Source: Methanobacteriota archaeon
GTDB lineage: Archaea; Thermoplasmatota; Thermoplasmata; RBG-16-68-12; EA-27
DNA length: 34,043 nucleotides
Reading direction: 5' to 3'
Assembly (NCBI GenBank): GCA_005878375.1
Contig: VBMQ01000001.1
Location: 1 to 34,043 of the forward strand
Below are positions 1 to 34,043 of this stretch, in pieces. The notes beneath the pieces were generated by a model. That model saw only the letters and a list, made by a program, of their open reading frames with translations. It was not told where the DNA came from and searched no databases. A program made the translations under genes and the position numbers. Positions within the stretch are counted from its first letter, which is position 1; the number at the start of each line of letters is the position of its first letter.

Positions 1-839
1 GGTCCGTCCACCCGTACAAGAAATGGCAAGGTGCATTTTGGCGGCTCATCTCCCTCCTGGAGCTCGGGGCGGACGGAGGCTCGCGAACGGACGAGATGTT
101 GGACCGGGTTCTCGATTGGCTCACGTCGGATGGCCGACGGGCCCGGGCGCGGCGCGTGGCGATCAACGGCCGCGTTCGGTGGTGCGCGACGCAGGAGGGG
201 CTCGGGCTGTGGGCGGCCGCGCGTCTCGGGCGCGCGACGGATCCCCGCGCGGCGTACATCGCCGAACGGTTGGTCGCGTGGCAATGGCCCGATGGCGGTT
301 GGAACTGCGATGTCCGCCCGGAGGCGGACCATTCCTCGTTCAACGAGACGCACGGGCCGATCCGGGGGTTGGCGGCATACGATGCGGAGGTCGGCGCGCC
401 GGCCGCCCGTCATGCGGCGGAACGGGCCGCGGACTTCTTCCTCGCCCACCATCTCTATCGCTCTCATCGGGACGGGCGGATCGTTCATCCCGAGATTGTT
501 CAGCTCCACTGGCCGCCGTACTGGCACTACGATGTCCTCCTCGGCCTCCGGACCGTCGCGGCCGTCCGGGACCTTCGGAGCGCCGCGGCCGCCGACGCGA
601 TCGAGCGCGTGCGACACGCGCAGACCGCAGACGGGACGTGGAGACCGACCGGCCATCGCTACTGGCGACCGCCGGGGCGCCGGGGCAGCAACGTCGAGGT
701 CGTCGACATGTCGGGCGCGGCCGCTCGCGTGATCACGGAGCAGGCCCGAGCCATCCTGCGCGCGGCCGGTGCACCTAGGAGCGCTTCTTTGGCGCCAACG
801 CCGACGCGAACGCGACGCCCCGCCCGACCCAGGTCTTGA
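1..839 (+). CDS. prenyltransferase/squalene-oxidase-repeat (terpenoid-cyclase-like) protein; 5' end lies outside the window
   Basis: Frame 3 is open from base 3 (..KWQGAFWRLISLLELG.. precedes the first Met at 96). There are two QxxDGxW repeats (QWPDGGWN, QTADGTWR). The last ~25 aa are low-complexity and overlap the convergent TfoX-like gene by 65 nt. Confidence 0.55.
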   Translation, partial: SVHPYKKWQGAFWRLISLLELGADGGSRTDEMLDRVLDWLTSDGRRARARRVAINGRVRWCATQEGLGLWAAARLGRATDPRAAYIAERLVAWQWPDGGWNCDVRPEADHSSFNETHGPIRGLAAYDAEVGAPAARHAAERAADFFLAHHLYRSHRDGRIVHPEIVQLHWPPYWHYDVLLGLRTVAAVRDLRSAAAADAIERVRHAQTADGTWRPTGHRYWRPPGRRGSNVEVVDMSGAAARVITEQARAILRAAGAPRSASLAPTPTRTRRPARPRS

Positions 840-1116
840 GCGCGGCCTCGCCCTTGTATCCGGACGGACCCACGAGTAGCCATCCGGGGCTCCCGCCCCG
901 ACCTGCCAGCGTGAACGGTCGCGCGCCGGGCTCGCGGAGCAACTGATCCGTTTCCTTCGGCTCGACGCGCACGATCAGGTCCTCGTCCCGCACGCCGACG
1001 CACATGTTCCCGTTGAGGAGGAAGGCGATGCCGCCAAACATCTCCTTCTCCGTGAGCCCGGGTCGCTTCCCGAGGCGCTTCCGGACCCGCGCGGCCTGCT
1101 CCGCCGAATACGTCAT
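775..1116 (-). CDS. TfoX N-terminal domain family protein
   Basis: 113-aa ORF. EKEMFGGIAFLLNGNMCVGV..DLIVRV matches the TfoX_N pattern (MFGG..f..nG.m). Confidence 0.65.
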   Translation of the reverse strand: MTYSAEQAARVRKRLGKRPGLTEKEMFGGIAFLLNGNMCVGVRDEDLIVRVEPKETDQLLREPGARPFTLAGRGGSPGWLLVGPSGYKGEAALKTWVGRGVAFASALAPKKRS

Positions 1117-1162
1117 CAGGACCGGAAGGGTGGCATCCGCAAGAACGTTTGGCGCGCCGTCG

Positions 1163-1939
1163 TTAGGGGACGCCGAGGTCCGCCGAGATCTCGTGGAACC
1201 ATTTCAGGGCCTCCGGATACTTTTCGAGGAGGTCCTGCCCATCCTTCACGAAAACGAGGCGCTGGTACCGCGCGACAACGTCCGGCGGGAGTTCGTAGTG
1301 CACGTACCGTGAGCGGAACGTGTGGTGGAGCGGCCCGTACTTCATCCGGAGGAGTTCGAGCAGCGGACCCGCCACGTACGCGCGATAGTTGTCCATCGCC
1401 TCGATCCAGTTCCGCCGGTTCGCCTCCTTCTCGACGAAGACGTGGAACATCTCGGTCACACCGCGGAGCCGCACGAGCCGCTCCTTCATCTTTCGATCGA
1501 ATTCCGCGCGGTTGAGCGGCGTGGCGTTTGTGACTCCGGTCTTGTCGAAGTACACGACATTCTCTCCGTGGAGTTCCGGTTCGAGGAACTTCTCCGTCGC
1601 GGTGCTCGGGATGACCGCCAAATCGACTTGGAGGAACGGCCCCGCGTCCTTCAGCCGATAGAACTTCTGCTGCATCCCGCCCTCGCCGGGATTGGCGGGA
1701 CCGTGGGCGACGAACGCGTGGTCGATCGGCGAGAGCCGAGGCAGCTCGTCTTCGACCGCGCGGAACGTCTCCTCGAACTTGCCCGGTTCGATGAAGACGT
1801 TGAGGTCGATGTCGGACCACGCGTCGATGCGGTGCCAGGCGGCGGCCCCGCCCTCCACGAGGGCCTCGACGTACGGCAGCGGCTCTAGCGCGGTCCTTAG
1901 CGCATGCACGATGGTGTCGCGGTCGAGAGTCCCCGCCAT
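1163..1939 (-). CDS. Pol-beta-superfamily nucleotidyltransferase with C-terminal helical domain
   Basis: The ATG at 1939 (MAGTLDR) lies 27 nt from the A/T box CCATAAGTCAATT. The NTase signature is GGAAAWHRIDAWSDIDLNVF (G-x-D-x-D). The upstream 161 codons of the listed ORF are Arg/Pro-rich antisense of the GST-like gene and are not counted. Confidence 0.6.
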   Translation of the reverse strand: MAGTLDRDTIVHALRTALEPLPYVEALVEGGAAAWHRIDAWSDIDLNVFIEPGKFEETFRAVEDELPRLSPIDHAFVAHGPANPGEGGMQQKFYRLKDAGPFLQVDLAVIPSTATEKFLEPELHGENVVYFDKTGVTNATPLNRAEFDRKMKERLVRLRGVTEMFHVFVEKEANRRNWIEAMDNYRAYVAGPLLELLRMKYGPLHHTFRSRYVHYELPPDVVARYQRLVFVKDGQDLLEKYPEALKWFHEISADLGVP

Positions 1940-2014
1940 CGGCGCGGGAAGCCTGTCTCGTCCATAAGTCAATTGGCGGGAGAATCGTTTTAGCGCGTCC
2001 CGCGTTGCCGACGC

Positions 2015-2647
2015 ATGGCCCGACCCGTCCTCTATTCGATGGGGATCTCCCACTGGTGCATCGCCGCGGACCGGATGCTCGCGTTCAAGGACGTCGCGTT
2101 CGACACGAAGCCGGTGCCGTACCACGACAAGACCGAACTGATCGCCGCCACCGGGCAGGACTACGTGCCCACGCTCATGTGGGACGGGAAGCCTGTGATG
2201 TGGTACGACATCCCCGACTTCCTCGAAGCGAAGGCCCCGAAGCCGTCGTTGTACCCATGGGGGAACAAGGGGTTGGCGGTGGAGCTCGAGCAATGGGCCC
2301 ACGCCGTCGTGGAGGAGAAGGTGTGGCGGTACGTCGTGACGAAGGTCCCTCCCGTCCTCTCCGACGACCGCGAGCGGTGGGTGTTCGAGGAGATGCAGAC
2401 GCGCGCACGCGGGCCGTGGCACGTCCTCGAGGCGCGTCGCCAGGAGTTCCGTCAGGACATGATGAAGGAGTTCGGGCGGATGGACGCGATGTTCGAGGGA
2501 CGCGATTGGATCCTCGGCGAGCCGAGCTTGGCGGACTTCGGCGCGTATGGCTCGGTGTCGCCGCTCTTCACGATCGGCGAGCGGATCCCGAACGAGTTCC
2601 CGAAATTGGCGGCGTGGGCGCAGCGGATTCAGAAGATCGGGACGTGA
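2015..2647 (+). CDS. glutathione S-transferase-like protein
   Basis: 210 aa. Thioredoxin-like N-terminal half (..YVPTLMWDGKPVMWYDIPDFL..) plus a helical C-terminal half ending FPKLAAWAQRI. The TTTTAG box lies ~25 nt upstream of the ATG. Confidence 0.55.
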   Translation: MARPVLYSMGISHWCIAADRMLAFKDVAFDTKPVPYHDKTELIAATGQDYVPTLMWDGKPVMWYDIPDFLEAKAPKPSLYPWGNKGLAVELEQWAHAVVEEKVWRYVVTKVPPVLSDDRERWVFEEMQTRARGPWHVLEARRQEFRQDMMKEFGRMDAMFEGRDWILGEPSLADFGAYGSVSPLFTIGERIPNEFPKLAAWAQRIQKIGT

Positions 2648-3074
2648 TCGACGCCTCGAGCGCTCGGTTCACGGCCTCCAGGTCGGCCTGAAAGAGGCGA
2701 GCGAGCCCGGGTCGCAGGACCGCGGCCATCCAGGTCCACGGCCACCGCAACTCGAGCTCAAGGTCCATCGTCACGCGGGTGCCGCCTTCTACCGGCTCCA
2801 GGCGCACGCGGTCTTTGGCGGTGCCGCCGCGAAGGCGCGAGGTGACCTCCCATCCGTTTGGCGGCTTCGGCCGCAAGACCGCCTGCGTGCGCATCGGGAT
2901 CCCGAAGATCGACCATCGGTCGTCGGTCTCGATCTCCTCGGCGTTGCGCCGCACGATTTGGCGGCGTCGCAGGGGCGGCATCACCGCGCCGGCGTCGTCC
3001 TCGCGGAGGTCCGTCCACCAGGCCAACGTCTCCTGCGGAGATGCACGGACGACGCCCGAGGCGTGGAACCGCAT
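2568..3074 (-). CDS. SRPBCC (START/polyketide-cyclase-like) domain protein
   Basis: ATG at 3074 (MRFHASGVVRASPQETLAWW). The length and beta-rich pattern are typical of SRPBCC proteins. The 38-aa Ser/Pro tail overlaps the GST-like gene by 80 nt. Confidence 0.45.
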   Translation of the reverse strand: MRFHASGVVRASPQETLAWWTDLREDDAGAVMPPLRRRQIVRRNAEEIETDDRWSIFGIPMRTQAVLRPKPPNGWEVTSRLRGGTAKDRVRLEPVEGGTRVTMDLELELRWPWTWMAAVLRPGLARLFQADLEAVNRALEASITSRSSESAAPTPPISGTRSGSARRS

Positions 3075-3114: not shown

Positions 3115-3528
3115 TCAGGCGAACGCGCCGAGGAGCGCCCCATAGGCGAGGTGGCTCACGAGGCTGATCGGCACCCCCGCGCCGCGGGCCGGGTCCCCGG
3201 TAACGGGCTCGTGGATGATGAGCGTGATGACCCACATCAGCGAGCCGAACGCGGCCCCGAGGACGGCGGTCGGCGTTGCGGCGAGCAGGGCGAGACCGAG
3301 AGCGAAGACGATCCCCGCCACGCCGCCCGCGAGGAGGTTGAGAACCAGGGCGGCCCGAAAGGACTTGTGGCCGAGCAACCGCACCGTGCCCGCCTCCGCC
3401 TCCGTCCACTCGAAGACCGCGCGGTGGCCCCACCGCGTCCACGCGAGCGCCTGAATCCCCATCATCGCCGCGGCCGCCGCCAACCCCGCGCCGAACCCGC
3501 GGATCACGGCGGCGGGGTCCAAGCTCAC
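3115..3528 (-). CDS. small multi-pass membrane protein
   Basis: The GTG at 3528 overlaps the upstream TGA (GTGA at 3525-3528), a translational-coupling arrangement. There are 3-4 hydrophobic helices. Confidence 0.45.
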   Translation of the reverse strand: MSLDPAAVIRGFGAGLAAAAAMMGIQALAWTRWGHRAVFEWTEAEAGTVRLLGHKSFRAALVLNLLAGGVAGIVFALGLALLAATPTAVLGAAFGSLMWVITLIIHEPVTGDPARGAGVPISLVSHLAYGALLGAFA

Positions 3529-4400
3529 GGCACCTCTTCGACCTGCGCATCGAACGGTTCCGTGAATCCCGACTCGCCCGCCTCGACGACGTTCTTCAGC
3601 GCGACGAGCCGGTCGGACCACCGACATCGCAACGGGAGAAGGGGCGGGTCCTCCTCTGGCGGGAAGCCCTCATGCGCGAAATGGAGGGCGCACCGGTCGC
3701 CGCTCTTCTCCTCGAAGGCAAAGGAGACGGTCGTCATCTCGTCCGCGTGCGGCCACGCGACCGCCAATCGCGCGGGCGGTTCGAAGGCGGTGATCTTGGC
3801 GGGCTTGGCGAATCCCCAACCGACGTCGAAGACCCCGCCGACTCGCGCGTCGATCGCGGGCTCTCGCCCCGGCTCCGGCTCCACCCACTTCCGCACCTCG
3901 GCGGGGGTCGTCACCGCGGCGAACGCCTTTTGGCGGGGGACGTCGAGCACGGTGTCGAGCTTGATCGCGAGCGCTCGCGGGGGAGAATGGTCCGGGCGGA
4001 ACGAGTCGCCTCTCCCCTCCGCGACCGCCTTCAGGTTCCCGAGGCACATCCGCCACGCATCTTGGAGCAAGCCGCATGTGCTCCGCAACGTCGTGAGGCC
4101 GGCGTGGGTTGCCCGAAGGATGGAGCCCTCCGCTGTGTCCTCGACCTCCCACGTCACGCTCGTCTCCGCTCCGAAGAGGGGCCACGCGAACGTCACGGAC
4201 TTGCGGACGACGCCCCCCGTGAACTTGCACGTCCACGCGTGTCCCTCGGGTTGCGCGATTGCATAGTCCCCGCCAAATACGAACTTCCCGCCCGGTTTCG
4301 GCTCGACCTGTGCGAAGTTGCACCACCACTGGGCGAGGTGATGGGGCGTGAGGAGCCGTTCGAACACCGCCTCCCGCGGTGCGCGGATCCGGAGCCCCAT
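3525..4400 (-). CDS. tandem SRPBCC / AHSA1-like (activator of Hsp90 ATPase homologue) domain protein
   Basis: ATG at 4400 (MGLRIRAPREAVFERLLTPHHLAQWW). A second copy of the same pattern follows (LDVPRQKAFAAVTTPAEVRKWV). Confidence 0.6.
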   Translation of the reverse strand: MGLRIRAPREAVFERLLTPHHLAQWWCNFAQVEPKPGGKFVFGGDYAIAQPEGHAWTCKFTGGVVRKSVTFAWPLFGAETSVTWEVEDTAEGSILRATHAGLTTLRSTCGLLQDAWRMCLGNLKAVAEGRGDSFRPDHSPPRALAIKLDTVLDVPRQKAFAAVTTPAEVRKWVEPEPGREPAIDARVGGVFDVGWGFAKPAKITAFEPPARLAVAWPHADEMTTVSFAFEEKSGDRCALHFAHEGFPPEEDPPLLPLRCRWSDRLVALKNVVEAGESGFTEPFDAQVEEVP

Positions 4401-4422: not shown

Positions 4423-5190
4423 TCACCCGCCCGCCGCGCCGACGAGGTACGCGATGCCGAAGCCGGCAATCGCGGACGCGATGCCGATGATGAGCATCTG
4501 CGCCCCGCTCCGGCCCGGGTGGCCGATCGTCGCCTTCGCCTTGTACCACCCGATGATGAACAGCGTGACGGCGCTCACGATCATCGACGCGAGGATTCCG
4601 CCGGACATCGTCCAGCCCGTGAGCGGGAGGAGGACGAACGGCGCGAGCGGCACGAGGGAGCCGACGATCGCGGCCATCCCGACAAGGACCGCGCTTCGCC
4701 GCGCCTGCGTCTTGTCGACCGGGGCGAGGTTCAACTCGTGCGCCATCATGAACTCGAGCCACGCGGTCGGGTTCGCGACGATCTTGTTCGTGAGCTCCTC
4801 GAGGTTCGCCCCGCGGAACCCCCATTTCTCAAACACTTTGCGGACCTCGTCCCGCTCCAGGTCGGGCAGTTCGACCATCTCCCGCTTCTCCCTCTCCATC
4901 TCGCTCAGGTAGTGGTCCCGCCGCGCGAGCGTGCTCGTGTACGCGACCGCGCCCATCGAGATCGACTCCGCGAACGTCGCCGCCAAACCTCCGGCGAGGA
5001 CGATCCGGAGGGCGTTCGTCCCGGGCTGGGCCGCCGCGGCGACCGCGACGCCGAGGATCACCCCGAGGACGTTCACGAGGCCGTCCTGGCTGCCGAGGAT
5101 GAAGTCGGACAGGAGGCCGGGCTTCGGGTGCTGCTCGATGCTCTGCGCGTCTGCCTCCTCCCGCCGCCAGAACGCAAGCCGAAGCGCCAT
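4423..5190 (-). CDS. VIT1/CCC1-family iron/manganese transporter
   Basis: 255 aa. FILGSQDGLVNVLGVILGV, a cytoplasmic E-rich helix bundle (EMEREKREMVELPDLERDEV) and C-terminal TM helices match the VIT family layout. Confidence 0.8.
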   Translation of the reverse strand: MALRLAFWRREEADAQSIEQHPKPGLLSDFILGSQDGLVNVLGVILGVAVAAAAQPGTNALRIVLAGGLAATFAESISMGAVAYTSTLARRDHYLSEMEREKREMVELPDLERDEVRKVFEKWGFRGANLEELTNKIVANPTAWLEFMMAHELNLAPVDKTQARRSAVLVGMAAIVGSLVPLAPFVLLPLTGWTMSGGILASMIVSAVTLFIIGWYKAKATIGHPGRSGAQMLIIGIASAIAGFGIAYLVGAAGG

Positions 5191-5704: not shown

Positions 5705-6337
5705 ATGGAGATCGCGAAGGGCGTGCACCTCATCGAGACGTTCGCGAACTGCGCCATCTTCTCGGACGGCCGGCTCGTGCTCGTGGACACGAGCGTGGAC
5801 GACGGGGCAAAGGACATCTTCTCATGGCTCCGGAAGAACGGCCACGCGCCCGGCGACATCTCATCCGTGATCGTCACGCACACGCATCCCGACCACGTCC
5901 TCGGATTGGCGGCCGTGAAAGCGCGCGCGCCGGGAGCCAAGGTCGCGGCCGGGAAGGACGACGCGGACTACGTCGCGCGCACGAAGGTCTACCCCGGCCC
6001 GCCCGGGCCGCAGAAGCACGACGCGGTCCCCGTCGACGTGCGTCTCGAGGACGGGCAGACGTACGAGGGCTTCCTCGTGATTCACACGCCCGGGCACACG
6101 CCGGGCCACACGTCGCTCCTGGACAAGGAACGAAAGATCCTCGTGGCGGGGGACGCATTGAACACGGAGAAGGGGCTCGGGCCGATGCCGGACCAGTATA
6201 ACATCGACCCGAAGCAGCACCGCCAATCGATCAAGAAGCTCGCGAACTTCGAGTTCGAGACCGTGATCGTGGGCCATGGGAAACCGATCCTTAAGGGCGG
6301 CGGGGCCCAGGTGAAGGCGGTCGCGGCGAAGCTGTAG
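5705..6337 (+). CDS. MBL-fold metallo-hydrolase
   Basis: ATG at 5705. HxHxDH motif (THTHPDH), later HTPGHTPGH and GHG. Confidence 0.85.
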   Translation: MEIAKGVHLIETFANCAIFSDGRLVLVDTSVDDGAKDIFSWLRKNGHAPGDISSVIVTHTHPDHVLGLAAVKARAPGAKVAAGKDDADYVARTKVYPGPPGPQKHDAVPVDVRLEDGQTYEGFLVIHTPGHTPGHTSLLDKERKILVAGDALNTEKGLGPMPDQYNIDPKQHRQSIKKLANFEFETVIVGHGKPILKGGGAQVKAVAAKL

Positions 6338-6339
6338 GC

Positions 6340-6957
6340 TTACGGGCCCGAGTACGCGAACTCGCTGAACTCCGCATATTTCCCGGAATTGTCGTACGAC
6401 AGGCCGGGCGTGTTGACGCGCATCCGGATTGACATCCCGAGCTCCGACCGTTTGGCGGTGAACCCCGTGGGCTTGTCGAGGTACACTTCCTCCTCATCTC
6501 CTGAGACGGGGTTCTTGATTCGCGAGATCGTGAGCTCGAAGAGCTTCCCGCCACCGACCTTGAGGGACGATCGGATGCCTTTGAGCGAGACCTGGAACGG
6601 CGCATAGATCGTCGGGAGCCGGGTCTCTGTGACCTTCGCGAAGATGTCGAACGGGAGGCCGACGCCGTCCCCGTTCCGGAGGGTCGCGATTGCCTCACGC
6701 TGCGCGGGGCTCGCCCGTTCGTCGACCAACGTGACCCACGTGCCGTGCCCCAAATGGATCGCCCCGGGATGGAAGCCCGCGCCCACGAACGCGACGCCAT
6801 CGAGCTTCACATCGCCATAGTGTCCCTTCTTCACGATCCACGCGTACGCACCTTGACAGGCGCCGTTCGTCGGCGGCGCATCGAAGCTACAGGGACAACC
6901 CCAATCGCAATTGCATCCACCGAGAATCGAGCCCGCCAAGCTCCACTTCTTGACCAC
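6340..6957 (-). CDS. DUF1326-family protein
   Basis: GTG at 6957 is preceded by GGGAGG 7 nt upstream. The N-terminus is VVKKWSLAGSILGGCNCDWGCPCSF, the hallmark CNCxxxCPC motif. The upstream 304 codons of the listed ORF are antisense of the topoisomerase gene. Confidence 0.65.
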   Translation of the reverse strand: MVKKWSLAGSILGGCNCDWGCPCSFDAPPTNGACQGAYAWIVKKGHYGDVKLDGVAFVGAGFHPGAIHLGHGTWVTLVDERASPAQREAIATLRNGDGVGLPFDIFAKVTETRLPTIYAPFQVSLKGIRSSLKVGGGKLFELTISRIKNPVSGDEEEVYLDKPTGFTAKRSELGMSIRMRVNTPGLSYDNSGKYAEFSEFAYSGP

Positions 6958-7046: not shown

Positions 7047-9014
7047 TCATCCGAGCACGACGGCGTCGCGCACCAGACGTGGGCGATCCCACGATGGACT
7101 CGGGCGAGCTTGTGGGCTCCGCACTGTGCACACACTTCTTCCGTCGGCGCGACGAGGCCCGACGTGGGCAAGGGGTGGGAGTTCCGGCACGTCGCCGTTC
7201 CGTGCGCGTCGCAGGACCATCGTACCCGCGCACTTTTCGCAGGGGCCGACCTCGACCTCGTCCGCCATCGCAGTCCGGACCCATCGGGCGATGCCCGCCT
7301 CGTGTCCTCGCATCTCCGTGAGGACCGCCGCCAAAAGCGTTCGACTCTCTTTCAGGACATCGGCCGCCGATCGCTCTCCCGACGCAATCCGGTCCATCGC
7401 GCTCTCGAGGGTCGCCGTCATCTCCGCTCCCGCCACGGCGCCCCCATACGCCTCGAGGGCCTCGGCGACCGCGCGCCCAGCCGCCGTTACACGCATCCGG
7501 CGTCCTTCGGCGTACCCCCGGTCGTACACCTTCTGCACGATCTCGTGGCGGGTGGACTTCGTCCCGAGGCCCTTCGCCTCCATCGCTTCGATAAGCTCGC
7601 CCTGGGAGTACCGCGACGGCGGTTCCGTCTCCCGCCGTTCGTTCGTGATTTCGGCCGGTCGGAGTTGATCCCCCACTGCGAGCGTCGGTACGCTCGTGCG
7701 CCCGGGCGCCGCCCCGTAGTATTTTCGCCAACCCGGGTCGACGAGGTCCCGCCAGCGCGCGAAGAACGATTCGCCGCCGATGTCGAACTCCGCGACCGCG
7801 TCCCGTTCCTGCGCAAGCGGCGCGACCGTCGCGAAGAACCGTCGGACGACGAGCTCGTACACCCGCCACGCGTCTCCCTTGAGCGCCTCGTGTCTCGCTC
7901 CGGCCGTCGGATAGATTGGCGGATGGTCCGTGGCCTGGATTGGGCCGCGGGACGGATGGAAGGACTCGAGGGCGAGAAGCTCAGCGACCTCCGCCGCCAA
8001 ATCGGATTCCCGCAATCGCTCGAGCGCGGATCGCACGTTGAGGCTTGGCGGATACACGGTGTTGTCCGTCCGCGGGTACGAGATCAAGCCTCGGCGGTAC
8101 AGGTCCTCCGCGATCTGCATCGCGCGCGCCGCCGCGAGCCCGAGACGCGTCGCCTCCGCGAGGAACATCGTCGTGTTGAACGGCGGGGGCCGATGTCCCT
8201 CGACACTTCGCGCGGCAAATTCGGTCACGTACGCGGTCTCCGCGAGTTCCGCGCGACCCTGCGCCGCGTCCGCCTCGTCACGCCGCCAAAACCGGTCCGT
8301 CCCGTGCGTCGCGGTGATTGTCGTTTCCCCCTCCAATCTGGCGGTGACGACCCAGTAGGGGACAGGGACGAAGGCCTCGATCTCCCGCTCCCGCTCCACG
8401 AGCAACGCGAGCGTCGGCGTCTGCACCCGGCCGACGGAGAGGAAGTCGCGCCCGCGACGGCCGCATGCAAGGGAGAGGAACCGCGTAAGGACCGCGCCCC
8501 ACGCGAGGTCGATCTCCTCCCGGGCCCGCGCGGAGGCCGCGAGCGCCTCATCGACCGGGGCGGGATGTGAGAACGCGTCCTCGATGTCCGCTCGGGCGAG
8601 CGCGCTGAACCGTGCGCGTTTGGCGGTGATGCCCGACCGCACTTGTCCCAGGAGGCGGAGGGCCTCTACCCCGATGAGCTCGCCCTCGCGGTCGAAGTCC
8701 GTGCACACCCACGCCTCGTCCGTGTCCGCCGCCAACGCGCGGAGTGCGTCGCCGATCAACGGCTCGCTCACTTTTTCGAGGGGTTCGGCGCCAACCAACG
8801 CATCGAGGTTCGCAAGTTCCCACCCCCGGAACGCCTCCGGATAGTCGAGCTCGACAATGTGGCCCCGGAGTCCGATGACCGAGTGATCGATCCCATCGCG
8901 GGAGAATTCGAAGACCGTGACGCCGATCCGGCGACGCTTGAACGTCCCTCCGGACAGCACGACGGCCAAGCGGAGGGCTGCGGAACCCTTCTCCGCTATG
9001 ACAAGGCGTCGCAC
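7047..9014 (-). CDS. type IA DNA topoisomerase, short paralogue; C-terminal zinc-ribbon region is out of frame
   Basis: GTG start. TOPRIM motifs ([17 protein letters not shown]) and the catalytic-Tyr motif ([13 protein letters not shown]) are present. After CEKC (7241-7230) the homologous continuation WSCDAHGTATCRNSHPLP..CAQCG..CATPSC.. is readable only in another frame (7219 down to the TGA at 7019-7021). Confidence 0.85.
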   Translation of the reverse strand: MRRLVIAEKGSAALRLAVVLSGGTFKRRRIGVTVFEFSRDGIDHSVIGLRGHIVELDYPEAFRGWELANLDALVGAEPLEKVSEPLIGDALRALAADTDEAWVCTDFDREGELIGVEALRLLGQVRSGITAKRARFSALARADIEDAFSHPAPVDEALAASARAREEIDLAWGAVLTRFLSLACGRRGRDFLSVGRVQTPTLALLVEREREIEAFVPVPYWVVTARLEGETTITATHGTDRFWRRDEADAAQGRAELAETAYVTEFAARSVEGHRPPPFNTTMFLAEATRLGLAAARAMQIAEDLYRRGLISYPRTDNTVYPPSLNVRSALERLRESDLAAEVAELLALESFHPSRGPIQATDHPPIYPTAGARHEALKGDAWRVYELVVRRFFATVAPLAQERDAVAEFDIGGESFFARWRDLVDPGWRKYYGAAPGRTSVPTLAVGDQLRPAEITNERRETEPPSRYSQGELIEAMEAKGLGTKSTRHEIVQKVYDRGYAEGRRMRVTAAGRAVAEALEAYGGAVAGAEMTATLESAMDRIASGERSAADVLKESRTLLAAVLTEMRGHEAGIARWVRTAMADEVEVGPCEKCAGTMVLRRARNGDVPELPPLAHVGPRRADGRSVCTVRSPQARPSPSWDRPRLVRDAVVLG

Positions 9015-26380: not shown

Positions 26381-26414
26381 TTGATAAAGTTGCCTACTAC
26401 TACACAGAAGTAGG
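26381..26414. promoter_or_regulatory. bidirectional TATA-like box (TTGATAAAG, 26381-26389) plus TACT-N10-AGTA palindrome (26393-26414)
   Basis: This is the only A/T-rich element between trmB and the smORF. Both ATGs lie 30-34 nt from it. The arms CCTACT and AGTAGG are exact reverse complements and overlap the expected plus-strand transcription start. Confidence 0.45.
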
Positions 26415-26419
26415 TAACC

Positions 26420-26521: not shown

Positions 26522-26548
26522 ACCGACCCCGGGACGGCCACCCGCACC

Positions 26549-26553
26549 TTTTT
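26549..26553 (+). terminator. oligo-T run downstream of the Cys-rich smORF (may double as the A/T box for the next gene)
   Basis: The T5 run starts 28 nt after the smORF stop and lies about 28 nt upstream of ATG 26579. Confidence 0.25.
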
Positions 26554-26578
26554 GGCGGGACCGGCCTTCCCGCCCGCC

Positions 26579-27148: not shown

Positions 27149-28609
27149 GTGAAGGCGCTCCGCGATCCTCGGGAGCCGGCGGCGTTCTCCCTCGTCGTCC
27201 TCATCGGGTTCGTCGTCGCGAAGTTCATCGCCGTGGCCGTGCACGAGGTGATGGGCCACGGGGTGTTCACGGACGCCCTTGGGGGCGTGTTCTACGGCGT
27301 CTACATCTCGCCTGGGTCCGGGTTCACGCTCCTGTTCCTCCCGGCCACGACCCCGCCCATCGCGTCCGTCCTCGTCGACTTGGCGGGGATCACCGTCGAC
27401 CTCCTGCTCGGCGTCGCGGTCTTCGTGGCGTACCCGCGCGTCCGGTCGTTCGTCGGTCGCCTGTTCGCCCTCTTGCTCCTTCAATCGTTGTTCGTGTACT
27501 CCCTGGCCTACCTCGCGCTGGGCACGATCGAGAGCACGGGCGGCGACTCGTATCAGGCGGTCCAGGACCTCGGGGCGCCGTTCCTCACCTACGCGTTTCT
27601 CGCGGTCGGGATCCTGTGGGCCCTCGGGTCTGCGTACGTGATCAGCCGCGAGCTCGTCGTGCTAACTTCCGCTGATGCGCGGTTCGCCCGCCAACTCACC
27701 TACCTCGGGCTCTTCTGGTTCGTCCCGCTCGCGTCCGGCTACGTCCCCGCCATAGCCTTCGGCCCGGGTTCCGCGATCCTGTACTTCCTCCTCTTCGCTG
27801 CGGTCGGTGCGATCGCTTTCGCGGCGGGTTGGCTCCTCGCCCCGCGCATTCCCGACGCGGGTGCGTCGCCAAAAGCCCGCGCATTGGGTCGCGTGATCCC
27901 CCTCGCCGTGGCGTTCGCTGTTGTGCTTCCGATTTGGCTTGGGGGGTTCGGGCTGTCAGATTCGGCGGCTCACGGGATTCTCGTCCGAGAGGCGCCGCTT
28001 GAAGCGGAAGGAACCCTCTCCGATTCCCAGGTCATCAACGTCGAGGTGGACCTCGCGGCCGACGGAAACGTCACGCTTGAGTTCCGGATGCGTGGCGTGC
28101 CACCCGCGACGTCGCCCCTCGAGGACGCGGTGTGGAATTCCTTCAACGATCGCGCGGACTTCCCGTCCTGGATTGCCCAGTCGCGCTGCTATGCACGATG
28201 GATGTTCAACGTGACAGCGTGGGACGCACGGTCGGCGTCGATTGACGCGAACGGCACGATTTGGTCCGGCGCTGCGACGGTCGGTCAGCCGCGCGTCGTT
28301 CGAATGGGCGTGTCGAACCCCGTGGACGAGGCGAACTTGACGACGGTAAGCGTCAACGGGACTCGGGCGTTCCTCACGATCGCCCCAATCGACTCCTTGC
28401 GGTACTACCCGACCGCGCCGTGCGGCCTCGGGTTCTTCGACGAGATGAACCTGACGTGGGCTTCGTCCCGGTTTCGATTATCGTCCCTGCAGACGCAAGG
28501 CGGGGCGCCGGCATCCCCTCTCATCGGAGGAAACTTCGTTCGGTTCCGGAACCCAGGTCCGGCCGAAGATGCGCCGACGAAGTACCGCCTCGTGCTCGAA
28601 GTCTTCTGA
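27149..28609 (+). CDS. membrane protein: N-terminal M50B-like intramembrane metallopeptidase domain plus large extracytoplasmic domain
   Basis: GTG at 27149 lies 25 nt from the CCATAAGCC box. HEVMGH (27242-27259) sits inside TM1 and is followed by GG..Y.VYISPGSGFT. There are ~7 TM helices, then a ~210-aa domain with five N-x-S/T sequons. Confidence 0.6.
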   Translation: MKALRDPREPAAFSLVVLIGFVVAKFIAVAVHEVMGHGVFTDALGGVFYGVYISPGSGFTLLFLPATTPPIASVLVDLAGITVDLLLGVAVFVAYPRVRSFVGRLFALLLLQSLFVYSLAYLALGTIESTGGDSYQAVQDLGAPFLTYAFLAVGILWALGSAYVISRELVVLTSADARFARQLTYLGLFWFVPLASGYVPAIAFGPGSAILYFLLFAAVGAIAFAAGWLLAPRIPDAGASPKARALGRVIPLAVAFAVVLPIWLGGFGLSDSAAHGILVREAPLEAEGTLSDSQVINVEVDLAADGNVTLEFRMRGVPPATSPLEDAVWNSFNDRADFPSWIAQSRCYARWMFNVTAWDARSASIDANGTIWSGAATVGQPRVVRMGVSNPVDEANLTTVSVNGTRAFLTIAPIDSLRYYPTAPCGLGFFDEMNLTWASSRFRLSSLQTQGGAPASPLIGGNFVRFRNPGPAEDAPTKYRLVLEVF

Positions 28610-29305: not shown

Positions 29306-31153
29306 TCATCGCGCCGCCAAACGCTTGCGCAATTTCTCGTTGAGGACGCGTCCATCGACCTTCCCGCGCAGGCGCTCCATCGCGACGCCCATGAGCGGAC
29401 CGAGCGCCGCCTCGCCCCGCTCCCGGATCATCGCCTCGTGCGCCGCGACGATCTCGTCGAGCACGGCATCGACGTCCGCGTCGCGCATCGTGCCCAGGCC
29501 CAGGGCGGTCACCGCCGCGGACGCATCCGTCGACTCCCGAACCATGTGGCGGAGGACCTGAGGGATCGCCTCCTTCGCGAAGGCGCCCCGGTGGTAGAGG
29601 CGGAAGAGCTCACGAAGTCGCTCGAGGGGGAGCGCATCGACGTCCAACCCTTCGCGCCGGATCTCCGAGAACTGGTACGTCAGCGCGTTGGCGGTGACTT
29701 GCGCTTCGCCGGTCTCCTTGACGATCGATTCGAATTCTCCGTCGAGCCCGTCCTCCAAGAGCTGCGTGGCCTGTTGACGGGGAATCGTGTACGCGGTGAC
29801 GATCCGCTTGAGGCGGGTCTCCGGCATCTCCGGAAGGATCGCCCGGAGCCGGTCGAGTCGTTCGCGGGTGACGCGAATCGGCGGCACGTCCGTCTCCGGA
29901 TACATGCGGGCCCGCCCGGGGAGCGGCCGCGAGTAGACCGTCGTCCCGTCTGGCCTCGGGTCGCGAGTCTCGGCGGTCACACCGGCCAAGGCGGCTCTCG
30001 CTCGTTCGACGACCTCTTCGAGCGCCTCTCGTCCGCGTGTCTCCGCGTCCGCGACGAGCGCAAACCCGTCGTGGCCCTCCACCGCCATCCGTTGCGCGAT
30101 CCTCTGCACTTCCTCCTCGGTGATGCCGTGGCCTGGCAGCTCATCGGAGTGAAGGATGCCGCCAACCCCGGCGACGCGCGCGTGCGCCGCGAGTTCGGGG
30201 CCGAGCTTGCCCCGGAGCAGGCCGCGGAACCCGGGGAGACGCACTCCTAAGACCGTCCCGCCCGCCGCGATCGCGTTGCGCAGGACGGAGGACTTCGCTT
30301 CGCGGACCAAGTCCGTCAAATCCACGATTCCGTCGTCGATGGCGGTGATCCCCCGCTTCCGTAACTCGTCCGTGCAGTCCGCGAGCGCGGTTTGGCGGCT
30401 CGCTTCCTTCTCGACGAACGTCGCCATCATCCGGAGGTCCTGCACGCCCTTCGTCTCCGTCCGCGCCCCCCGGGCGACACTCACGTTCACATCCTCGCGG
30501 ATTGTGCCGATGCCCCGCTTCACGCGGCGCGTCGCTCGGAGGAGGGAGCCGATGCGCAGCGCGACTTTGGCGGCATCGTCCGGCGATGTGATGTCCGGGG
30601 TCGTCGCGACCTCGATGAGGGGGACGCCCAGGCGGTCGAGGCGGTAGACGATGTCTCCGTCCCGTTCTTCGATCTTCCGCGCGGCATCTTCCTCGAGTAG
30701 GATCGTGGGGACTCCATATCGCTTGCCGTCGAGCTCGAACGATCCGTCGACCGCAACCAGGGCAGACCGTTGGAAGCCCGTCGTGTTCGACCCATCGATG
30801 ACGATCTTTCGCATGAAGTGGATTTCCTCCACGATCGTCGCGTTCAGCATCATCGCCGCCAAAAGCACTGTGTCGAGCGCGTCTTCATTGCAGGGATGCG
30901 GGGGTTCCTCGTCCGCCTCGACGAGGCACGCGTTCCCCGTCGCCTGATAGACGAAGGCGAGCTTTCGTTTCGCTTCTTCCATGACCGCAGCGTCGACCTC
31001 CCCGAGTTCGGATTGCGTCGGTCGGAGGCGTCGCCGAAATTCCGCGACCACGCCCTCCGAACGATCGGACGGGTCCTCGCAGAACAGCTTGTGGGTGTCG
31101 AGCTGCTGATGGATCTCGAGGCCGCACTTCAGGCCGAGGCTCGCGGGGTCCAT
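29306..31153 (-). CDS. gatE: Glu-tRNA(Gln) amidotransferase subunit E
   Basis: 615 aa, LKCGLEIHQQLDT.KLFC.., with GatB/E core and tail domains. Confidence 0.92.
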   Translation of the reverse strand: MDPASLGLKCGLEIHQQLDTHKLFCEDPSDRSEGVVAEFRRRLRPTQSELGEVDAAVMEEAKRKLAFVYQATGNACLVEADEEPPHPCNEDALDTVLLAAMMLNATIVEEIHFMRKIVIDGSNTTGFQRSALVAVDGSFELDGKRYGVPTILLEEDAARKIEERDGDIVYRLDRLGVPLIEVATTPDITSPDDAAKVALRIGSLLRATRRVKRGIGTIREDVNVSVARGARTETKGVQDLRMMATFVEKEASRQTALADCTDELRKRGITAIDDGIVDLTDLVREAKSSVLRNAIAAGGTVLGVRLPGFRGLLRGKLGPELAAHARVAGVGGILHSDELPGHGITEEEVQRIAQRMAVEGHDGFALVADAETRGREALEEVVERARAALAGVTAETRDPRPDGTTVYSRPLPGRARMYPETDVPPIRVTRERLDRLRAILPEMPETRLKRIVTAYTIPRQQATQLLEDGLDGEFESIVKETGEAQVTANALTYQFSEIRREGLDVDALPLERLRELFRLYHRGAFAKEAIPQVLRHMVRESTDASAAVTALGLGTMRDADVDAVLDEIVAAHEAMIRERGEAALGPLMGVAMERLRGKVDGRVLNEKLRKRLAAR

Positions 31154-31657: not shown

Positions 31658-31716
31658 TCGCCCCGCCAACGGAGTCGCGGTTTAAGCCTTCCCGCATCTC
31701 CACGGCCGGTCCATCC

Positions 31717-33021
31717 CTAGAAGACGTACTCGTCGAGCGTGATCGCCGGATTGATCTCCCCCGCCAAATTCGTGGCGAGGAGCTCCCGGATCTCGACCGG
31801 GTCCTTCGTCCGCGCGAGGACCCACATGAGCTTCACGAGCGCCACCTCCGGGAGCATGTCTTCCCCGGGAACCACGCCCGCCGCGAGCAGATCCCGACCC
31901 TTGTCATAGACCCGGAGGCCGACGCGGCCGTTGAGGCACTGCGTCGTCATGAGGACCGTGACGCCGTCGGCCGCCGTTTTCCGAATCACGGGCATGAGGT
32001 CGTCGCTCACGTGTCCCAATCCGGTCCCCGCGATCACGACCCCGTGACACCCGTGCGTGATCCCTTCGAACCGTTTCGGCGTGAGCCCCGGATGGAAGTA
32101 CACGAGGGCGACATCCGGGTCGAGGCCTTCTTCGACGCGGACCGGGCCTTTCGACCTCGGGGTCGCCGATTCTTCCCATGTGACGCGGCCATCCGCGTGA
32201 ACGGTTCCCAGGCGCTTTGCGTTGATCGGCTTGAACGCGTCTCGGCGGGAGGAGTGCATCTTCCGCACCTTCGTCGCGCGGAGGACGTCGCACGCGGTGT
32301 CGCCGGTCTCGTGGTGCATGCAGCTTACGACCTCACCGAGATTCTCGCCCGCCAATCGCGCGGCGCAAATCAGGTTGAACGCAGCGTCGCTGCTCGGCCG
32401 GTCGCTCGACCGTTGGCTCCCGACGAGGATCACAGGACCCGTGAGGTCGCGGAGCATGAACGCGAGCGCCGCGCTCGTGTAGTGGAGCGTATCGGTCCCG
32501 TGGGGGATGATCACCGCCTCCGCGCCGGCCTGCAGTTCCTTCGCGGCCTCCGCCGCCAGCACCTCCCAGTTCTTCGGTGCGAGGTTCTCGCTGTACACGC
32601 TGTAGATCATGCGCGCCCGGACGTTCGCGACGTCGAGCAGCTCCGGGACGGAGAACACGAGTTCCTCCGCGGTCGCCGCAGGGTGGACCGCCCCCGTCCG
32701 ATAGTCGACGAAGCTCGCGATCGTCCCGCCGGTGCCGAGGACCCCGATCGTCGGCTTTCCCGGGGTTGGCGGGGGGAGGCCGCGGGCTATGGCGGCCGCT
32801 CGTTTCTTCTCGCGCAATTCGATGGCGGTGATTTGCGCCACGGGGATCCCGACGTTGTACCCGTTGTCCAGCTTCACCACGAGGATGTCCGCGCCGCTGA
32901 ACTCCGTGTGCGGCATGACGACACCCTCGTACGCACGGGCTCCCGCGACTCGGACGCGGTCGCCCACGGACGCGCCGGCCGCCGCCAACGCGTCTTTGAC
33001 GCGCGCCGGATACTCGGCCAC
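31717..33021 (-). CDS. gatD: Glu-tRNA(Gln) amidotransferase subunit D (asparaginase-like)
   Basis: GTG start. GTGGTIASFVDYRTGAV and HGTDTLHYTSAAL. Confidence 0.92.
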   Translation of the reverse strand: MAEYPARVKDALAAAGASVGDRVRVAGARAYEGVVMPHTEFSGADILVVKLDNGYNVGIPVAQITAIELREKKRAAAIARGLPPPTPGKPTIGVLGTGGTIASFVDYRTGAVHPAATAEELVFSVPELLDVANVRARMIYSVYSENLAPKNWEVLAAEAAKELQAGAEAVIIPHGTDTLHYTSAALAFMLRDLTGPVILVGSQRSSDRPSSDAAFNLICAARLAGENLGEVVSCMHHETGDTACDVLRATKVRKMHSSRRDAFKPINAKRLGTVHADGRVTWEESATPRSKGPVRVEEGLDPDVALVYFHPGLTPKRFEGITHGCHGVVIAGTGLGHVSDDLMPVIRKTAADGVTVLMTTQCLNGRVGLRVYDKGRDLLAAGVVPGEDMLPEVALVKLMWVLARTKDPVEIRELLATNLAGEINPAITLDEYVF

Positions 33022-33029
33022 GCCGCCGG

Positions 33030-33332
33030 ATGGGCGAGAGGGACTTGACCCTTTCTCCGCGGCGAGCCATACTTATCTCCGCGTGCTTTGGCGGGGATGT
33101 GCGGACCGCGCGCGACGTCCTCAACGAACTCAAATGGCGGGAGGGGCAGGGACTCGCGGAGGCGCAGATTTGGGTCCGCGGTCGGACCGCCGACGACGTG
33201 AAGTCGATTCGTGGCGAGGAAGTCACCGACCTCGGTCGGCGATACTTCTCCACCGCCAGGGCGACGATTCCCTACTACAAGATCGTCCGGATTGAACATG
33301 CCGGCGTGCTCGTCTTCGAGCGCGCGGATTGA
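33030..33332 (+). CDS. DUF504 / MJ1316-like small protein
   Basis: ARDVLNELKW..IPYYKIVRIEHAGVLVFER. ATG 33030 is only 8 nt from the gatD start. The in-frame GTG at 33099 lies 24 nt from the CTTATCT box and is a more likely start. Confidence 0.6.
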   Translation: MGERDLTLSPRRAILISACFGGDVRTARDVLNELKWREGQGLAEAQIWVRGRTADDVKSIRGEEVTDLGRRYFSTARATIPYYKIVRIEHAGVLVFERAD

Positions 33333-33533
33333 AGCGCCGTCATTCCCGCCAACGAGAATGAACACAACGTAGTGCGGGCCGCGACGCAAGGTTCAAACCG
33401 TCCCCGGTCAGATGCGGGCGAACGGGGGCAGGTCACGTTCGAATGCTCGGGATGCGGCGGCCACTTCGGCCCCACGGAGCTGTGCGAGGACTGCGGCGTC
33501 TGCACCTCGTGCTGCGAACCGGGGGCGGACCGA

Positions 33534-34043
33534 CTAGGGCGTGGCGAGCTCGTAGACGATCCGGTCCGTCTCCTTTCCCTTGTTCCGTCGTTCCGTGATG
33601 TGGACGCGGCCGATTTCTGATGTGTTCTTCAGGTGCGTCCCGCCGCACGGACAGTAGTCGCGGTCCCCGGCGCGCACCGCGCGAAGGCGCATGATGTGCT
33701 TCGGGATGAGGTCGACGAGGGAACGGTCCCCGGTCTCGTTCTCGATCTTTACTCGGTCCTCCTCCGTGATTCGGACGGGAAGCGCCTCCGCCACCGCGCG
33801 ATTGCACTCGTCCTCGATCCGTTTCAGATCCGCAGGCGTGAAGCTCACAGGCTGGAAGTCGACCCGTGCGCGGTCCGCGTACAACTGGTTCCCAACCGTC
33901 CTGGCTCCATAGATGGACCACACGACGCCGGACATGAGGTGTTGGGACGTGTGGTACCGCATGTGGGCGTACCGCCGGTCCCAGTCGATGATCCCGTGAA
34001 CCGCGTCGTCCCCGGGCATGCGGTCCACGAAATGTCGGATGAC
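33534..34043 (-). CDS. alaX: alanyl-tRNA editing protein AlaX-type; 5' end lies outside the window
   Basis: HTSQH and CPCGGTH zinc/editing motifs. The frame is open to the window edge. Confidence 0.85.
   Translation of the reverse strand, partial: VIRHFVDRMPGDDAVHGIIDWDRRYAHMRYHTSQHLMSGVVWSIYGARTVGNQLYADRARVDFQPVSFTPADLKRIEDECNRAVAEALPVRITEEDRVKIENETGDRSLVDLIPKHIMRLRAVRAGDRDYCPCGGTHLKNTSEIGRVHITERRNKGKETDRIVYELATP

Follow-up and report, generated by a model that had tools for sequence, protein, structure and literature searches.

Hyperabundant short DNA words are mechanistically understood in few bacterial groups: the uptake signal sequence (USS, AAGTGCGGT) of Pasteurellaceae and the DNA uptake sequence (DUS, GCCGTCTGAA) of Neisseriaceae, Chi and, in part, the highly iterated palindrome HIP1 (GCGATCGC) of cyanobacteria. 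Each of them revealed a DNA-handling machine that recognises self. Chi words, such as GCTGGTGG in Escherichia coli, GAAGCGG in Staphylococcus aureus and AGCGG in Bacillus subtilis, can mark self DNA for a translocating nuclease. Other words are polar along the chromosome, namely the FtsK-orienting polar sequences (KOPS, GGGNAGGG), the architecture-imparting sequences (AIMS) and the archaeal short polarised sequences (ASPS). Very-short-patch repair by Dcm and Vsr leaves an excess of CCWGG and a deficit of CTAG and CTWGG in E. coli; a biased repair process, shown for CCWGG in this species, was once proposed for HIP1 also. Here we describe the word TTGGCGG (complement CCGCCAA) in a window of 34,043 bases, positions 1-34,043 of contig VBMQ01000001.1 (assembly GCA_005878375.1) from a soil Methanobacteriota archaeon of the class Thermoplasmata that is known only from metagenomes. 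TTGGCGG is a hyperabundant genomic word, thus an element of a known kind, found in a new domain of life and with an asymmetric core and evolving dialects. We tentatively read it as an uptake-sequence-like tag of self DNA.

Like USS and DUS, TTGGCGG is a short non-palindromic word that is present at one to few copies per kb, is equally frequent in both orientations and occurs in every frame within genes. Unlike them, it is found in an archaeal host without known competence, as a putative tag with a hypothetical receptor and uptake bias. With Chi it shares the properties of a short, G-rich, species-specific 5-8-mer that is over-represented within genes, with KOPS, AIMS and ASPS those of a short G-rich over-represented word tolerated within genes, and with the Dcm/Vsr footprint a DNA-level process that shifts word frequencies whatever the frame. 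USS and DUS were shown by Findlay & Redfield to lie at poorly conserved residues and to raise particular tripeptides (PMC2817400), and the copies of TTGGCGG behave alike. DUS dialects are clade-restricted lineage variants around a shared core (PMC3630211), and the flank differences described below around the hexamer TGGCGG resemble them. HIP1 is likewise hyperabundant, with a 15- to 300-fold excess and, at its most frequent, over one copy per gene (PMC5861425); it too is present in all frames and has lineage-specific variants. It differs in being palindromic and in having cognate orphan methyltransferases, TTGGCGG being asymmetric; moreover, HIP1 sites are positionally conserved and periodically distributed (PMC5861425), whereas those of TTGGCGG are neither and show Poisson-like spacing. 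As HIP1, for a long time a word without known function, was recently linked to transformation efficiency (bioRxiv 10.1101/2024.09.10.611283), the boundary between these word classes may not be sharp.

Abundance and boundaries of the word

An exact count over the 34,043 bases gave 38 TTGGCGG and 32 CCGCCAA on the plus strand, i.e. one copy per 486 bp or 2.06 per kb, and reproduced both the numbers and all the coordinates of a preliminary description made from the sequence alone. At the G+C content of the window, 66.9% (it had been guessed at about 65%), base composition predicts 3.95 TTGGCGG and 3.79 CCGCCAA, very near the four per orientation estimated there. An order-2 Markov model predicts 5.6 copies for both orientations together; the 70 observed amount to an enrichment of about 12-fold. 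Neither TTGGCGG nor CCGCCAA is self-complementary, so the word is non-palindromic.

The core is sharply bounded at 7 bp. Flank information is at most 0.26 bits at every position, and only positions -1 (T in 28 of the 70 copies) and +1 (A in only 4 of 70) are informative. Among the plus-strand TTGGCGG copies the preceding base is T in 17 of 38, in agreement with the 17 of 37 tabulated previously. Position 7 is fixed as G: 70 TTGGCGG were found versus 4 TTGGCGA, 4 TTGGCGC and no TTGGCGT. The neighbours CTGGCGG (15, 6 expected) and TCGGCGG (27, 24 expected) are not below expectation, and TTGGTGG, TTGGCAG and TTGGCGT are each absent versus 1.2-3.9 expected, which are small counts. When compared to the control loci presented below, every variant with one mismatch to the core, transversion neighbours included, shows a mild deficit (0.6-0.9-fold), with no outlier among them. 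Scans of the window for tRNA genes and Rfam families gave no matches. A second candidate word, TCGGGAT/ATCCCGA, was dropped since it is only 1.6-fold above the control loci.

The enrichment is independent of frame, strand and codon usage

Thirty-eight genes, called with a self-trained codon model and checked against gene calls on strain contigs, contain 61 of the 70 copies. The nine others (starting at 1973, 6933, 11924, 11983, 15223, 26552, 31663, 33088 and 33346) lie outside the calls and include the five that had been considered intergenic (1973, 11924, 11983, 26552 and 33346). Coding DNA has 1.97 copies per kb and non-coding DNA 2.99. Within genes the word is read in six ways with respect to frame and orientation, namely TTG-GCG-G (24 copies; about 25 had been proposed), xCC-GCC-AA (14), xxC-CGC-CAA (9, the number already reported), xTT-GGC-GG (6), CCG-CCA-A (5-6) and xxT-TGG-CGG (3), and the dominant tripeptides at copies are LAA, TAK, AAK and xRQ. 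The codons used by the word are rare, as had been supposed: TTG represents 10% of the Leu codons, CAA 23% of Gln, CCA 6% of Pro, TTT 4% of Phe and ATT 10% of Ile.

The excess was evaluated with four shuffle schemes and a per-frame test. When protein sequence and per-gene codon usage were kept, 11.6 copies were expected in genes and 62 observed (z 14.8); an earlier gene set gave 56 observed versus 9-11 expected. Keeping dinucleotides as well lifted the expectation to 21-24, indicating that part of the excess comes from local dinucleotide context, but the 56 copies observed were still at z 9-11. The present protein sequences allow the word at 175 permissive positions, 62 of which (35%) are occupied. 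Under the synonymous-shuffle null TTGGCGG is the strongest outlier of all 7-mers, the other top words all overlap it, and the top 8-mer is TTTGGCGG (24 observed versus 1.7 expected). Each of the six classes is enriched 4.5-6.6-fold on its own (each P<=0.01, synonymous shuffle). Since six unrelated codon pairs are raised by the same factor, codon-pair bias cannot explain the enrichment, and the shuffles together with the per-frame test rule out a codon, amino-acid or dinucleotide artefact.

These results, together with the low density in relatives (see below), show that the process acts on the double-stranded DNA word itself, without regard to frame, gene sense or strand. An action on the DNA word rather than on the protein had been proposed in the preliminary description, and neither of the outcomes named there as refuting it was observed: the enrichment persists in shuffles that keep amino acids, codon usage and dinucleotides, and the word is much rarer in other genomes of similar G+C content. 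The force on the word prevails over codon preference and over part of the amino-acid conservation (see below).

A core shared across a clade, with flanks that vary by lineage

When metagenomes were scanned with PurC, 80 loci of related soil Thermoplasmata that are syntenic were obtained. The control loci, 62 in number with 569 kb in total (64.8% G+C), carry the word at 0.18 per kb versus 2.06 per kb in the window, and TTTGGCGG is 31-fold rarer. Relatives of 67-70% G+C carry the word at 0.05-0.27 per kb; it is therefore not equally frequent in relatives of similar G+C content.

A group of loci with 69-81% nucleotide identity to the window (L087-L093, L100, L105, L153, L156 and L159), hereafter clade A, gave a different picture for the hexamer TGGCGG/CCGCCA. 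It is 3-5-fold over Markov expectation in most of these loci and 2.5-2.6-fold in L153 and L156. Compared to orthologous controls, TGGCGG is raised 2.4-3.2-fold in clade A, whereas AGGCGG, CGGCGG and GGGCGG are raised only 1.2-1.4-fold. Under the synonymous shuffle its z reaches 9.0 (window), 6.5, 6.4, 4.7 and 3.6 in the most enriched members of the clade, is lower in L153 (2.3), L091 (2.6) and L092 (1.0), and ranges from -1.3 to 0.1 in six control loci.

The bases around this hexamer differ between lineages. A 5' T precedes it in 70 of 127 cases in the window but in 11 of 58 in L087 and 18 of 69 in L089, and a 3' G follows it in 44 of 127 cases in the window and 4 of 69 in L089 (Fisher P ~3e-6 for the 5' T between window and L087 and for the 3' G between window and L089; 9e-5 for the 5' T between window and L089). 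L091 and L092 favour TGGCGGT, and L153 favours GGCGGTG (39 vs 8.2). Summed over both Y bases, YTGGCGG reaches 2.5 per kb in the window, similar to the 2.06 per kb of L089. Where the window and a relative share TGGCGG, a 5' T in the window faces a C in the relative 19 times (about 9 distinct sites), with no case in the opposite direction, which indicates a directional shift of specificity in the window lineage. The evolutionary unit is thus larger than the 7-mer: a clade-wide core TGGCGG with lineage-specific flanks.

Other words also differ between clade A and the controls: GGCC is at 0.75-0.83-fold, TGGCCA about 3-fold lower (24 vs 73) and GCGC 1.5-fold higher. These differences may reflect different restriction-modification or DNA-modification repertoires. 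In another locus (L165:9700-12100) AGGGCCT was found 22 times versus 3.7 expected. It was rejected as a second dialect word because the copies are strand-biased (19:3) and clustered in repeat-protein genes, i.e. two unannotated genes by a TPR-repeat gene, where AGGGCCT probably encodes a repeated Glu-Ala-Leu peptide.

Age of the copies and cost to proteins

At aligned clade A positions 7-20% of the window 7-mers are conserved (0 of 8 in L086), while the average 7-mer is conserved at 22-30%; the hexamer TGGCGG is conserved in 82 of 255 cases, about as the average (~30%). The words found in relatives at the position of a window copy are mainly CTGGCGG (19), TTGGCGG (18), TCGGCGG (11) and CTCGCGG (6), and these orthologous positions differ from the window copies by point substitutions, not by insertions. 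Tripeptides that carry a copy are identical in relatives in 22.6% of cases, versus 42.4% for the other tripeptides of the same genes (P=0.003). Examples of replacements (window/relatives) are TAK/RVR, TAK/AAR or AAE, LAA/FAx or VQA, PAK/PAD or PRD and FWR/FWE or FWA.

Because positional conservation is low, the residues concerned are poorly conserved and replacements are seen, the copies are recent, placed where proteins tolerate change, with the proteins partly rewritten. This comparison of sequences points to turnover or replenishment rather than to a site-specific function. The word had been described as held in place by rare synonymous codons. The rare codons are indeed there and represent a cost, but the copies are young rather than held in place, and synonymous codons are not the only cost, since many copies replace amino acids.

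Arrangement along the window

Gaps between copies correspond to random, Poisson-like placement (coefficient of variation 1.04), without excess of short or long gaps, and no clustering, even spacing or periodicity was found at the scale of the window. The order of orientations is random too (38 runs versus 35.7 expected in a runs test). Orientations are balanced on the plus strand (38:32), as claimed before, and relative to gene sense (33:28), while three quarters of the coding DNA is on the minus strand. Cumulative GC skew falls monotonically across the window, which therefore probably lies on a single replichore, and the word does not switch orientation along it. No replication or transcription polarity of the word was found in the window. 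A replication-polar role of the Chi type, which had been among the candidates, or of the KOPS type is disfavoured by the 38:32 ratio (P=1.3e-4 under a Chi-like skew of 75%, P=0.04 under 65%).

Host, strains and competence-related genes

The nearest species representatives are the uncultured soil or sediment Thermoplasmata RBG_16_67_27, RBG_19FT_COMBO_69_17, EA_12 and SMAG_U3968, with a GatE only ~60% identical. The same species was found at 99.4-99.8% nucleotide identity in three other independent soil metagenomes (contigs L001-L003 and L164). These strain contigs carry the same word copies as the window, and an assembly artefact is therefore excluded.

Near its right end, at 33670-34005, the window differs from L001 by 25 single-nucleotide polymorphisms (SNPs) in 340 bases (~7%), while the remaining 14 kb differs by ~0.15%. 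Two explanations apply to this cluster, import of a recombination tract or chimerism at the end of the contig.

Pfam scans of the window revealed no methyltransferase or Vsr-like gene and no RecBCD/AddAB-type helicase-nuclease. The gene 775-1116(-) encodes a 113-aa protein with a TfoX_N domain only. TfoX/Sxy is a competence regulator of the bacteria Haemophilus and Vibrio. Homologues of this TfoX_N protein at 65-77% identity are widespread in soil Thermoplasmata (538 matches), and of the seven contigs fetched for four of them, six are not word-enriched. The exception is L165, in which the TGGCGG core is 2.2-fold enriched and TTGGCGG is not in excess. The homologue being not specific to enriched lineages, this neighbour was dropped as a competence link.

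Positions of the copies and neighbouring genes

The products of the window genes include GatD/GatE, two type IA topoisomerases, RPA-like OB-fold proteins, KaiC/RadA-like ATPases, TrmB, PurC and others. Copies are given below from left to right, with + for TTGGCGG and - for CCGCCAA on the top strand, followed by the frame class. The coding sequence (CDS) 3-839(+) contains 38-44 (+, xxT-TGG-CGG) and 369-375 (+, TTG-GCG-G). The TfoX_N gene 775-1116(-) has 1031-1037 (-, xTT-GGC-GG), and CDS 1163-1939(-) has 1615-1621 (-, TTG-GCG-G) and 1692-1698 (+, xCC-GCC-AA). The divergent intergenic region 1940-2014 carries the non-coding copy 1973-1979 (+). Three copies of class TTG-GCG-G, all +, are found in CDS 2015-2647(+), at 2273-2279, 2528-2534 and 2606-2612, and CDS 2568-3074(-) follows with 2815-2821 (+, xCC-GCC-AA), 2858-2864 (+, CCG-CCA-A) and 2958-2964 (+, xxC-CGC-CAA). 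Within the 507 bases of this last gene there are 4 copies of the word. The gene is intact (~168 aa) in the window and called as 98 aa at L164:8838-9134 on a 99.5%-identical strain contig, and the length difference suggests a frameshift or indel between strains.

CDS 3115-3528(-) contains 3477-3483 (-, TTG-GCG-G); four copies are in CDS 3525-4400(-), at 3761-3767 (-, TTG-GCG-G), 3796-3802 (+, xCC-GCC-AA), 3930-3936 (+, xxC-CGC-CAA) and 4270-4276 (-, xTT-GGC-GG), and one is in CDS 4423-5190(-), at 4980-4986 (-, TTG-GCG-G). CDS 5705-6337(+) has 5906-5912 (+, TTG-GCG-G) and 6220-6226 (-, xxC-CGC-CAA), and CDS 6340-6834(-) has 6452-6458 (+, xCC-GCC-AA). The copy 6933-6939 (-) is outside the gene call, probably within a DUF1326 gene that is longer than called (205 aa in L164).

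Two type IA topoisomerase genes, 7047-8969(-) and 9451-11883(-), are arranged in tandem with a RidA/L-PSP gene (9047-9349) alone between them. The shorter paralogue, 7047-8969(-), contains 7328-7334 (-, TTG-GCG-G), 7916-7922 (+, CCG-CCA-A; TCGGCGG in relatives), 7994-8000 (-, TTG-GCG-G; LAA vs FAx in relatives), 8045-8051 (+, CCG-CCA-A; PPS vs PST in relatives), 8283-8289 (-, xxT-TGG-CGG; FWR only in the window), 8620-8626 (+, xCC-GCC-AA; TAK vs RVR in relatives) and 8729-8735 (-, TTG-GCG-G). The other gene, 9451-11883(-), has only 10512-10518 (-, TTG-GCG-G) and 11114-11120 (+, xCC-GCC-AA). Density is thus uneven between genes: 2 of 17 permissive positions are filled in topA and 7 of 18 in its paralogue, whose higher word occupancy goes along with a lower G+C content at third codon positions (0.81 vs 0.92). 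The non-coding copy 11924-11930 (+), upstream of topA, is the only one that is also TTGGCGG in non-enriched relatives (in L147; TTGGCGC in L122). This copy may be a promoter or leader element of the ordinary kind, unrelated to the genome-wide phenomenon. A second non-coding copy is at 11983-11989 (+).

Further on, CDS 12151-13209(+) contains 12894-12900 (-, xxC-CGC-CAA), and CDS 13248-14108(-) contains 13450-13456 (+, xCC-GCC-AA; TAK vs AAR/AAE in relatives) and 13570-13576 (-, xTT-GGC-GG; TCGGCGG in relatives). The five copies of CDS 13991-15151(-) comprise two xTT-GGC-GG, at 14136-14142 (-) and 15009-15015 (-), and three xCC-GCC-AA, at 14649-14655 (+), 14772-14778 (+) and 15072-15078 (+). 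A non-coding copy, 15223-15229 (-), is 72 nt upstream of the sucC start. In CDS 15517-16329(-) the word is at 15964-15970 (-, xxT-TGG-CGG), and in CDS 17272-18195(-) at 17437-17443 (+, xxC-CGC-CAA; CTGGCGG in relatives) and 17921-17927 (+, xCC-GCC-AA). CDS 18341-18847(+), with 18365-18371 (+, TTG-GCG-G), is a T4 gp19-like tail-tube gene (Pfam E 1e-44), isolated among housekeeping genes between PurC and KaiC-like ones; its surroundings contain nothing else of phage or contractile-injection type. CDS 20618-21412(+) contains 20687-20693 (+, TTG-GCG-G), 20791-20797 (-, xxC-CGC-CAA; CTGGCGG in relatives) and 21280-21286 (-, xxC-CGC-CAA), CDS 21484-21951(+) contains 21790-21796 (+, TTG-GCG-G), and CDS 21952-22839(-) contains 22161-22167 (+, CCG-CCA-A) and 22305-22311 (-, TTG-GCG-G; LAA vs VAA/VQA in relatives).

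CDS 23173-24507(-) has 23691-23697 (-, TTG-GCG-G) and 23963-23969 (+, xCC-GCC-AA). The longest copy-free gap (23963-26552, 2.6 kb) begins there and covers an Arf/Ras/Roc-family small GTPase gene, 24914-25525(+), and, adjacent to it, a TrmB-family regulator gene, 25571-26356(-). It ends with the non-coding copy 26552-26558 (+), 27 nt upstream of a start at 26579. CDS 27149-28609(+) contains 27380-27386 (+, TTG-GCG-G) and 27688-27694 (-, xxC-CGC-CAA). Six copies are present in CDS 29306-31153(-): 29314-29320 (-, TTG-GCG-G), 29688-29694 (+, xCC-GCC-AA), 30159-30165 (-, xTT-GGC-GG), 30392-30398 (+, xxC-CGC-CAA), 30567-30573 (+, xCC-GCC-AA) and 30856-30862 (-, TTG-GCG-G). The non-coding copy 31663-31669 (-) is 6 nt upstream of a start at 31657. 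CDS 31717-33021(-) has 31761-31767 (-), 32349-32355 (-) and 32982-32988 (-), all TTG-GCG-G, and 32766-32772 (+, CCG-CCA-A). The last two copies are non-coding: 33088-33094 (+), in a divergent intergenic region, 4 nt before a start at 33099, and 33346-33352 (-), in a convergent one.

Beyond the right end of the window, the surface-protein cluster of strain contig L002:1-5100 has 3 copies in 5.1 kb (0.6 per kb), and the fn3/Big-domain surface-protein genes in it (L002 664-2828) have essentially none. This suggests that word density depends on gene history or type. The low density in the surface-protein cluster fits an accumulation with residence time.

Discussion

We tentatively favour an interpretation of TTGGCGG as an uptake-sequence-like self-DNA tag spread by biased DNA exchange. 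It is preferred on account of the non-palindromic word, the equal orientations, the use of all frames, the poorly conserved residues, the dialects, the turnover and the depletion of near-matches, and an uptake-type tag is the only established mechanism that gives this whole combination of features. The general depletion of one-mismatch variants is as expected if near-matches are converted to matches. A sequence-specific protein would read TTGGCGG on double-stranded DNA as a lineage-specific tag, and DNA fragments bearing the word would be preferentially bound, imported or recombined in exchange between cells of the same species. Alleles that match the word would then replace non-matching alleles wherever the protein tolerates the change, and the word would spread by DNA-level drive, not by selection on individual sites. 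The specificity of the receptor would have drifted within the clade around the shared core TGGCGG, the window lineage having gained a 5' T plus a weaker further T to give (t)TTGGCGG. We infer both DNA exchange as the driver, in place of repair or direct selection, and the existence of a specific receptor. That a clade of uncultured soil Thermoplasmata of high G+C possesses a DNA self-recognition comparable to the bacterial uptake sequences and based on the core tag TGGCGG, with diverging flank dialects and driven by conspecific exchange, is possible, if doubtful.

Several observations weigh against this interpretation. The word is shorter than known USS and DUS (7-8 bp versus 9-12 bp) and, at 2 per kb, about twice as dense. 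It has no extended flank consensus and lacks both the flanking AT-tracts and the inverted pairs that act as terminators; no close inverted pairs or hairpins of the word were found in the window. It uses rare codons, unlike USS, which favour frames with preferred codons (PMC2817400). The literature search found no archaeal uptake sequence. We know of neither such a sequence nor a receptor for one in archaea, and the TfoX_N gene of the window, dropped above, supplies no link to competence. Evidence for recombination between strains is limited to the SNP cluster at the contig end. No SNP between strain contigs and window falls inside a word copy (0 versus ~1 expected), so that strain polymorphism does not separate drive, selection and mutation bias from one another. 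Finally, the genome sample consists of the 34-kb window and ~5 kb of strain contig.

It is conceivable, though rather unlikely, that TTGGCGG is bound or recognised at high density by an abundant chromosome-associated protein, such as a nucleoid or chromosome-organising factor or a recombination and repair enzyme to which it would be a Chi-like mark of self, and that selection for density maintains it. A DNA-level effect that ignores frame and orientation and is about the same inside and outside coding DNA would agree with this, as would a specificity that evolves within the clade and a sharp G-rich core resembling the Chi words in length and composition. However, Chi words follow the direction of replication, with ~65-80% of them on the same strand of a replichore, and KOPS, AIMS and ASPS are strongly strand-skewed and switch at origin or terminus, whereas TTGGCGG is unskewed and randomly oriented within an apparently single replichore, which makes a polar signal of the Chi, KOPS or AIMS type unlikely. 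Chi is also enriched only few-fold, unlike the ~12-fold of TTGGCGG with 35% of the permissive sites filled, and its readers RecBCD and AddAB are bacterial; to our knowledge, no such readers are known in archaea. An occupancy of this level plus amino-acid replacements would be a heavy cost for bulk binding, and the Poisson-like spacing is neither even nor periodic. HIP1 has been argued to be under selection and was linked to nucleoid structure, but its sites are positionally conserved (PMC5861425), while the copies of TTGGCGG show no excess of positional conservation.

We consider it unlikely that the word is a functionless product of biased repair or gene conversion, made for instance by a non-palindromic methyltransferase together with a very-short-patch-type endonuclease, or by a nickase. 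Such a process would replenish the word continually, in line with young copies that are not positionally conserved, and the directional flank change from C to T (19:0), the depletion of one-off variants and a clade restriction as expected of a mobile methyltransferase or repair gene fit as well. The differences in GGCC, TGGCCA and GCGC between clade A and clade B would suggest different DNA-modification repertoires. On the other hand, patch repair of T:G to C:G predicts one or two losers among the neighbours, whereas among the neighbours, all at 0.6-0.9-fold and some with small counts, no transition or T-containing one stands out; the flank shift creates T, which is the wrong way for this repair. 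The 12-fold enrichment is an order of magnitude larger than the effect on CCWGG in E. coli, the word is not a palindrome, and the window contains no methyltransferase or Vsr-like gene that Pfam scans could detect.

Still less probable is a context-specific mutational hotspot, e.g. a deaminase or an error-prone polymerase producing C to T changes just 5' of (T)GGCGG, added to an older peculiarity of composition in the whole clade. The commonest non-matching orthologous words (CTGGCGG, TCGGCGG, CTCGCGG) show that most window copies differ by C>T transitions at positions 1-2, and the 19:0 asymmetry at shared sites and the similar YTGGCGG densities of window and L089 point the same way. Yet a hotspot leaves unexplained the clade-wide enrichment of the TGGCGG core and the fixed 3' G at position 7. 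Many copies arose via transversions and replacements (RVR to TAK, FAx to LAA), and neither of the presumed sources, CTGGCGG and TCGGCGG, falls short of expectation in the window.

An origin of the word as by-product of amino-acid composition, codon or codon-pair usage, dinucleotide bias or GGCC avoidance was tested and essentially refuted. Although the dinucleotide-preserving shuffle accounts for part of the excess, and the mild GGCC depletion of the clade could favour GCG over GCC after G-ending codons, the excess persists in this shuffle, all six frame classes with their unrelated codon pairs are raised by the same factor of ~5-6, non-coding DNA is enriched too, and the word is missing from orthologous genes of relatives with similar G+C. 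Avoidance of GGCC, taken as the origin of TGGCG, predicts equal gains for A, C, G and T before GGCGG and is ruled out because the T-prefixed hexamer alone is enriched. A dispersed mobile repeat, i.e. remnants or cores of an extended element similar to miniature inverted-repeat transposable elements or repetitive extragenic palindromes, would provide the high copy number and both orientations but can be set aside, since conservation stops at the 7-8 bp core with uninformative flanks, 61 of 70 copies are inside ordinary intact housekeeping genes with the reading frame kept, and relatives differ by point substitutions and not by insertions.

Significance

The literature search did not find TTGGCGG as a described genomic element, with only incidental matches to primers and constructs, and turned up no comparable word from archaea, in agreement with the earlier statement that no described element with this core was known in archaea. 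In these metagenome-assembled genomes TTGGCGG can serve as a sensitive marker, both in binning and in detecting foreign DNA, and analyses of codon usage and of dN/dS in the clade are distorted by the DNA-level force. If TTGGCGG is the footprint of repair or binding, it would lead to an enzyme with a novel sequence specificity or to a novel chromatin protein. Should it be an exchange tag, it would represent the first sequence of the uptake or self-tag type from archaea, its dialects would offer a natural handle for finding the receptor by comparative genomics, uncultured soil Thermoplasmata would frequently exchange DNA through a species gate, and gene exchange in soil archaea would be frequent and gated by sequence.

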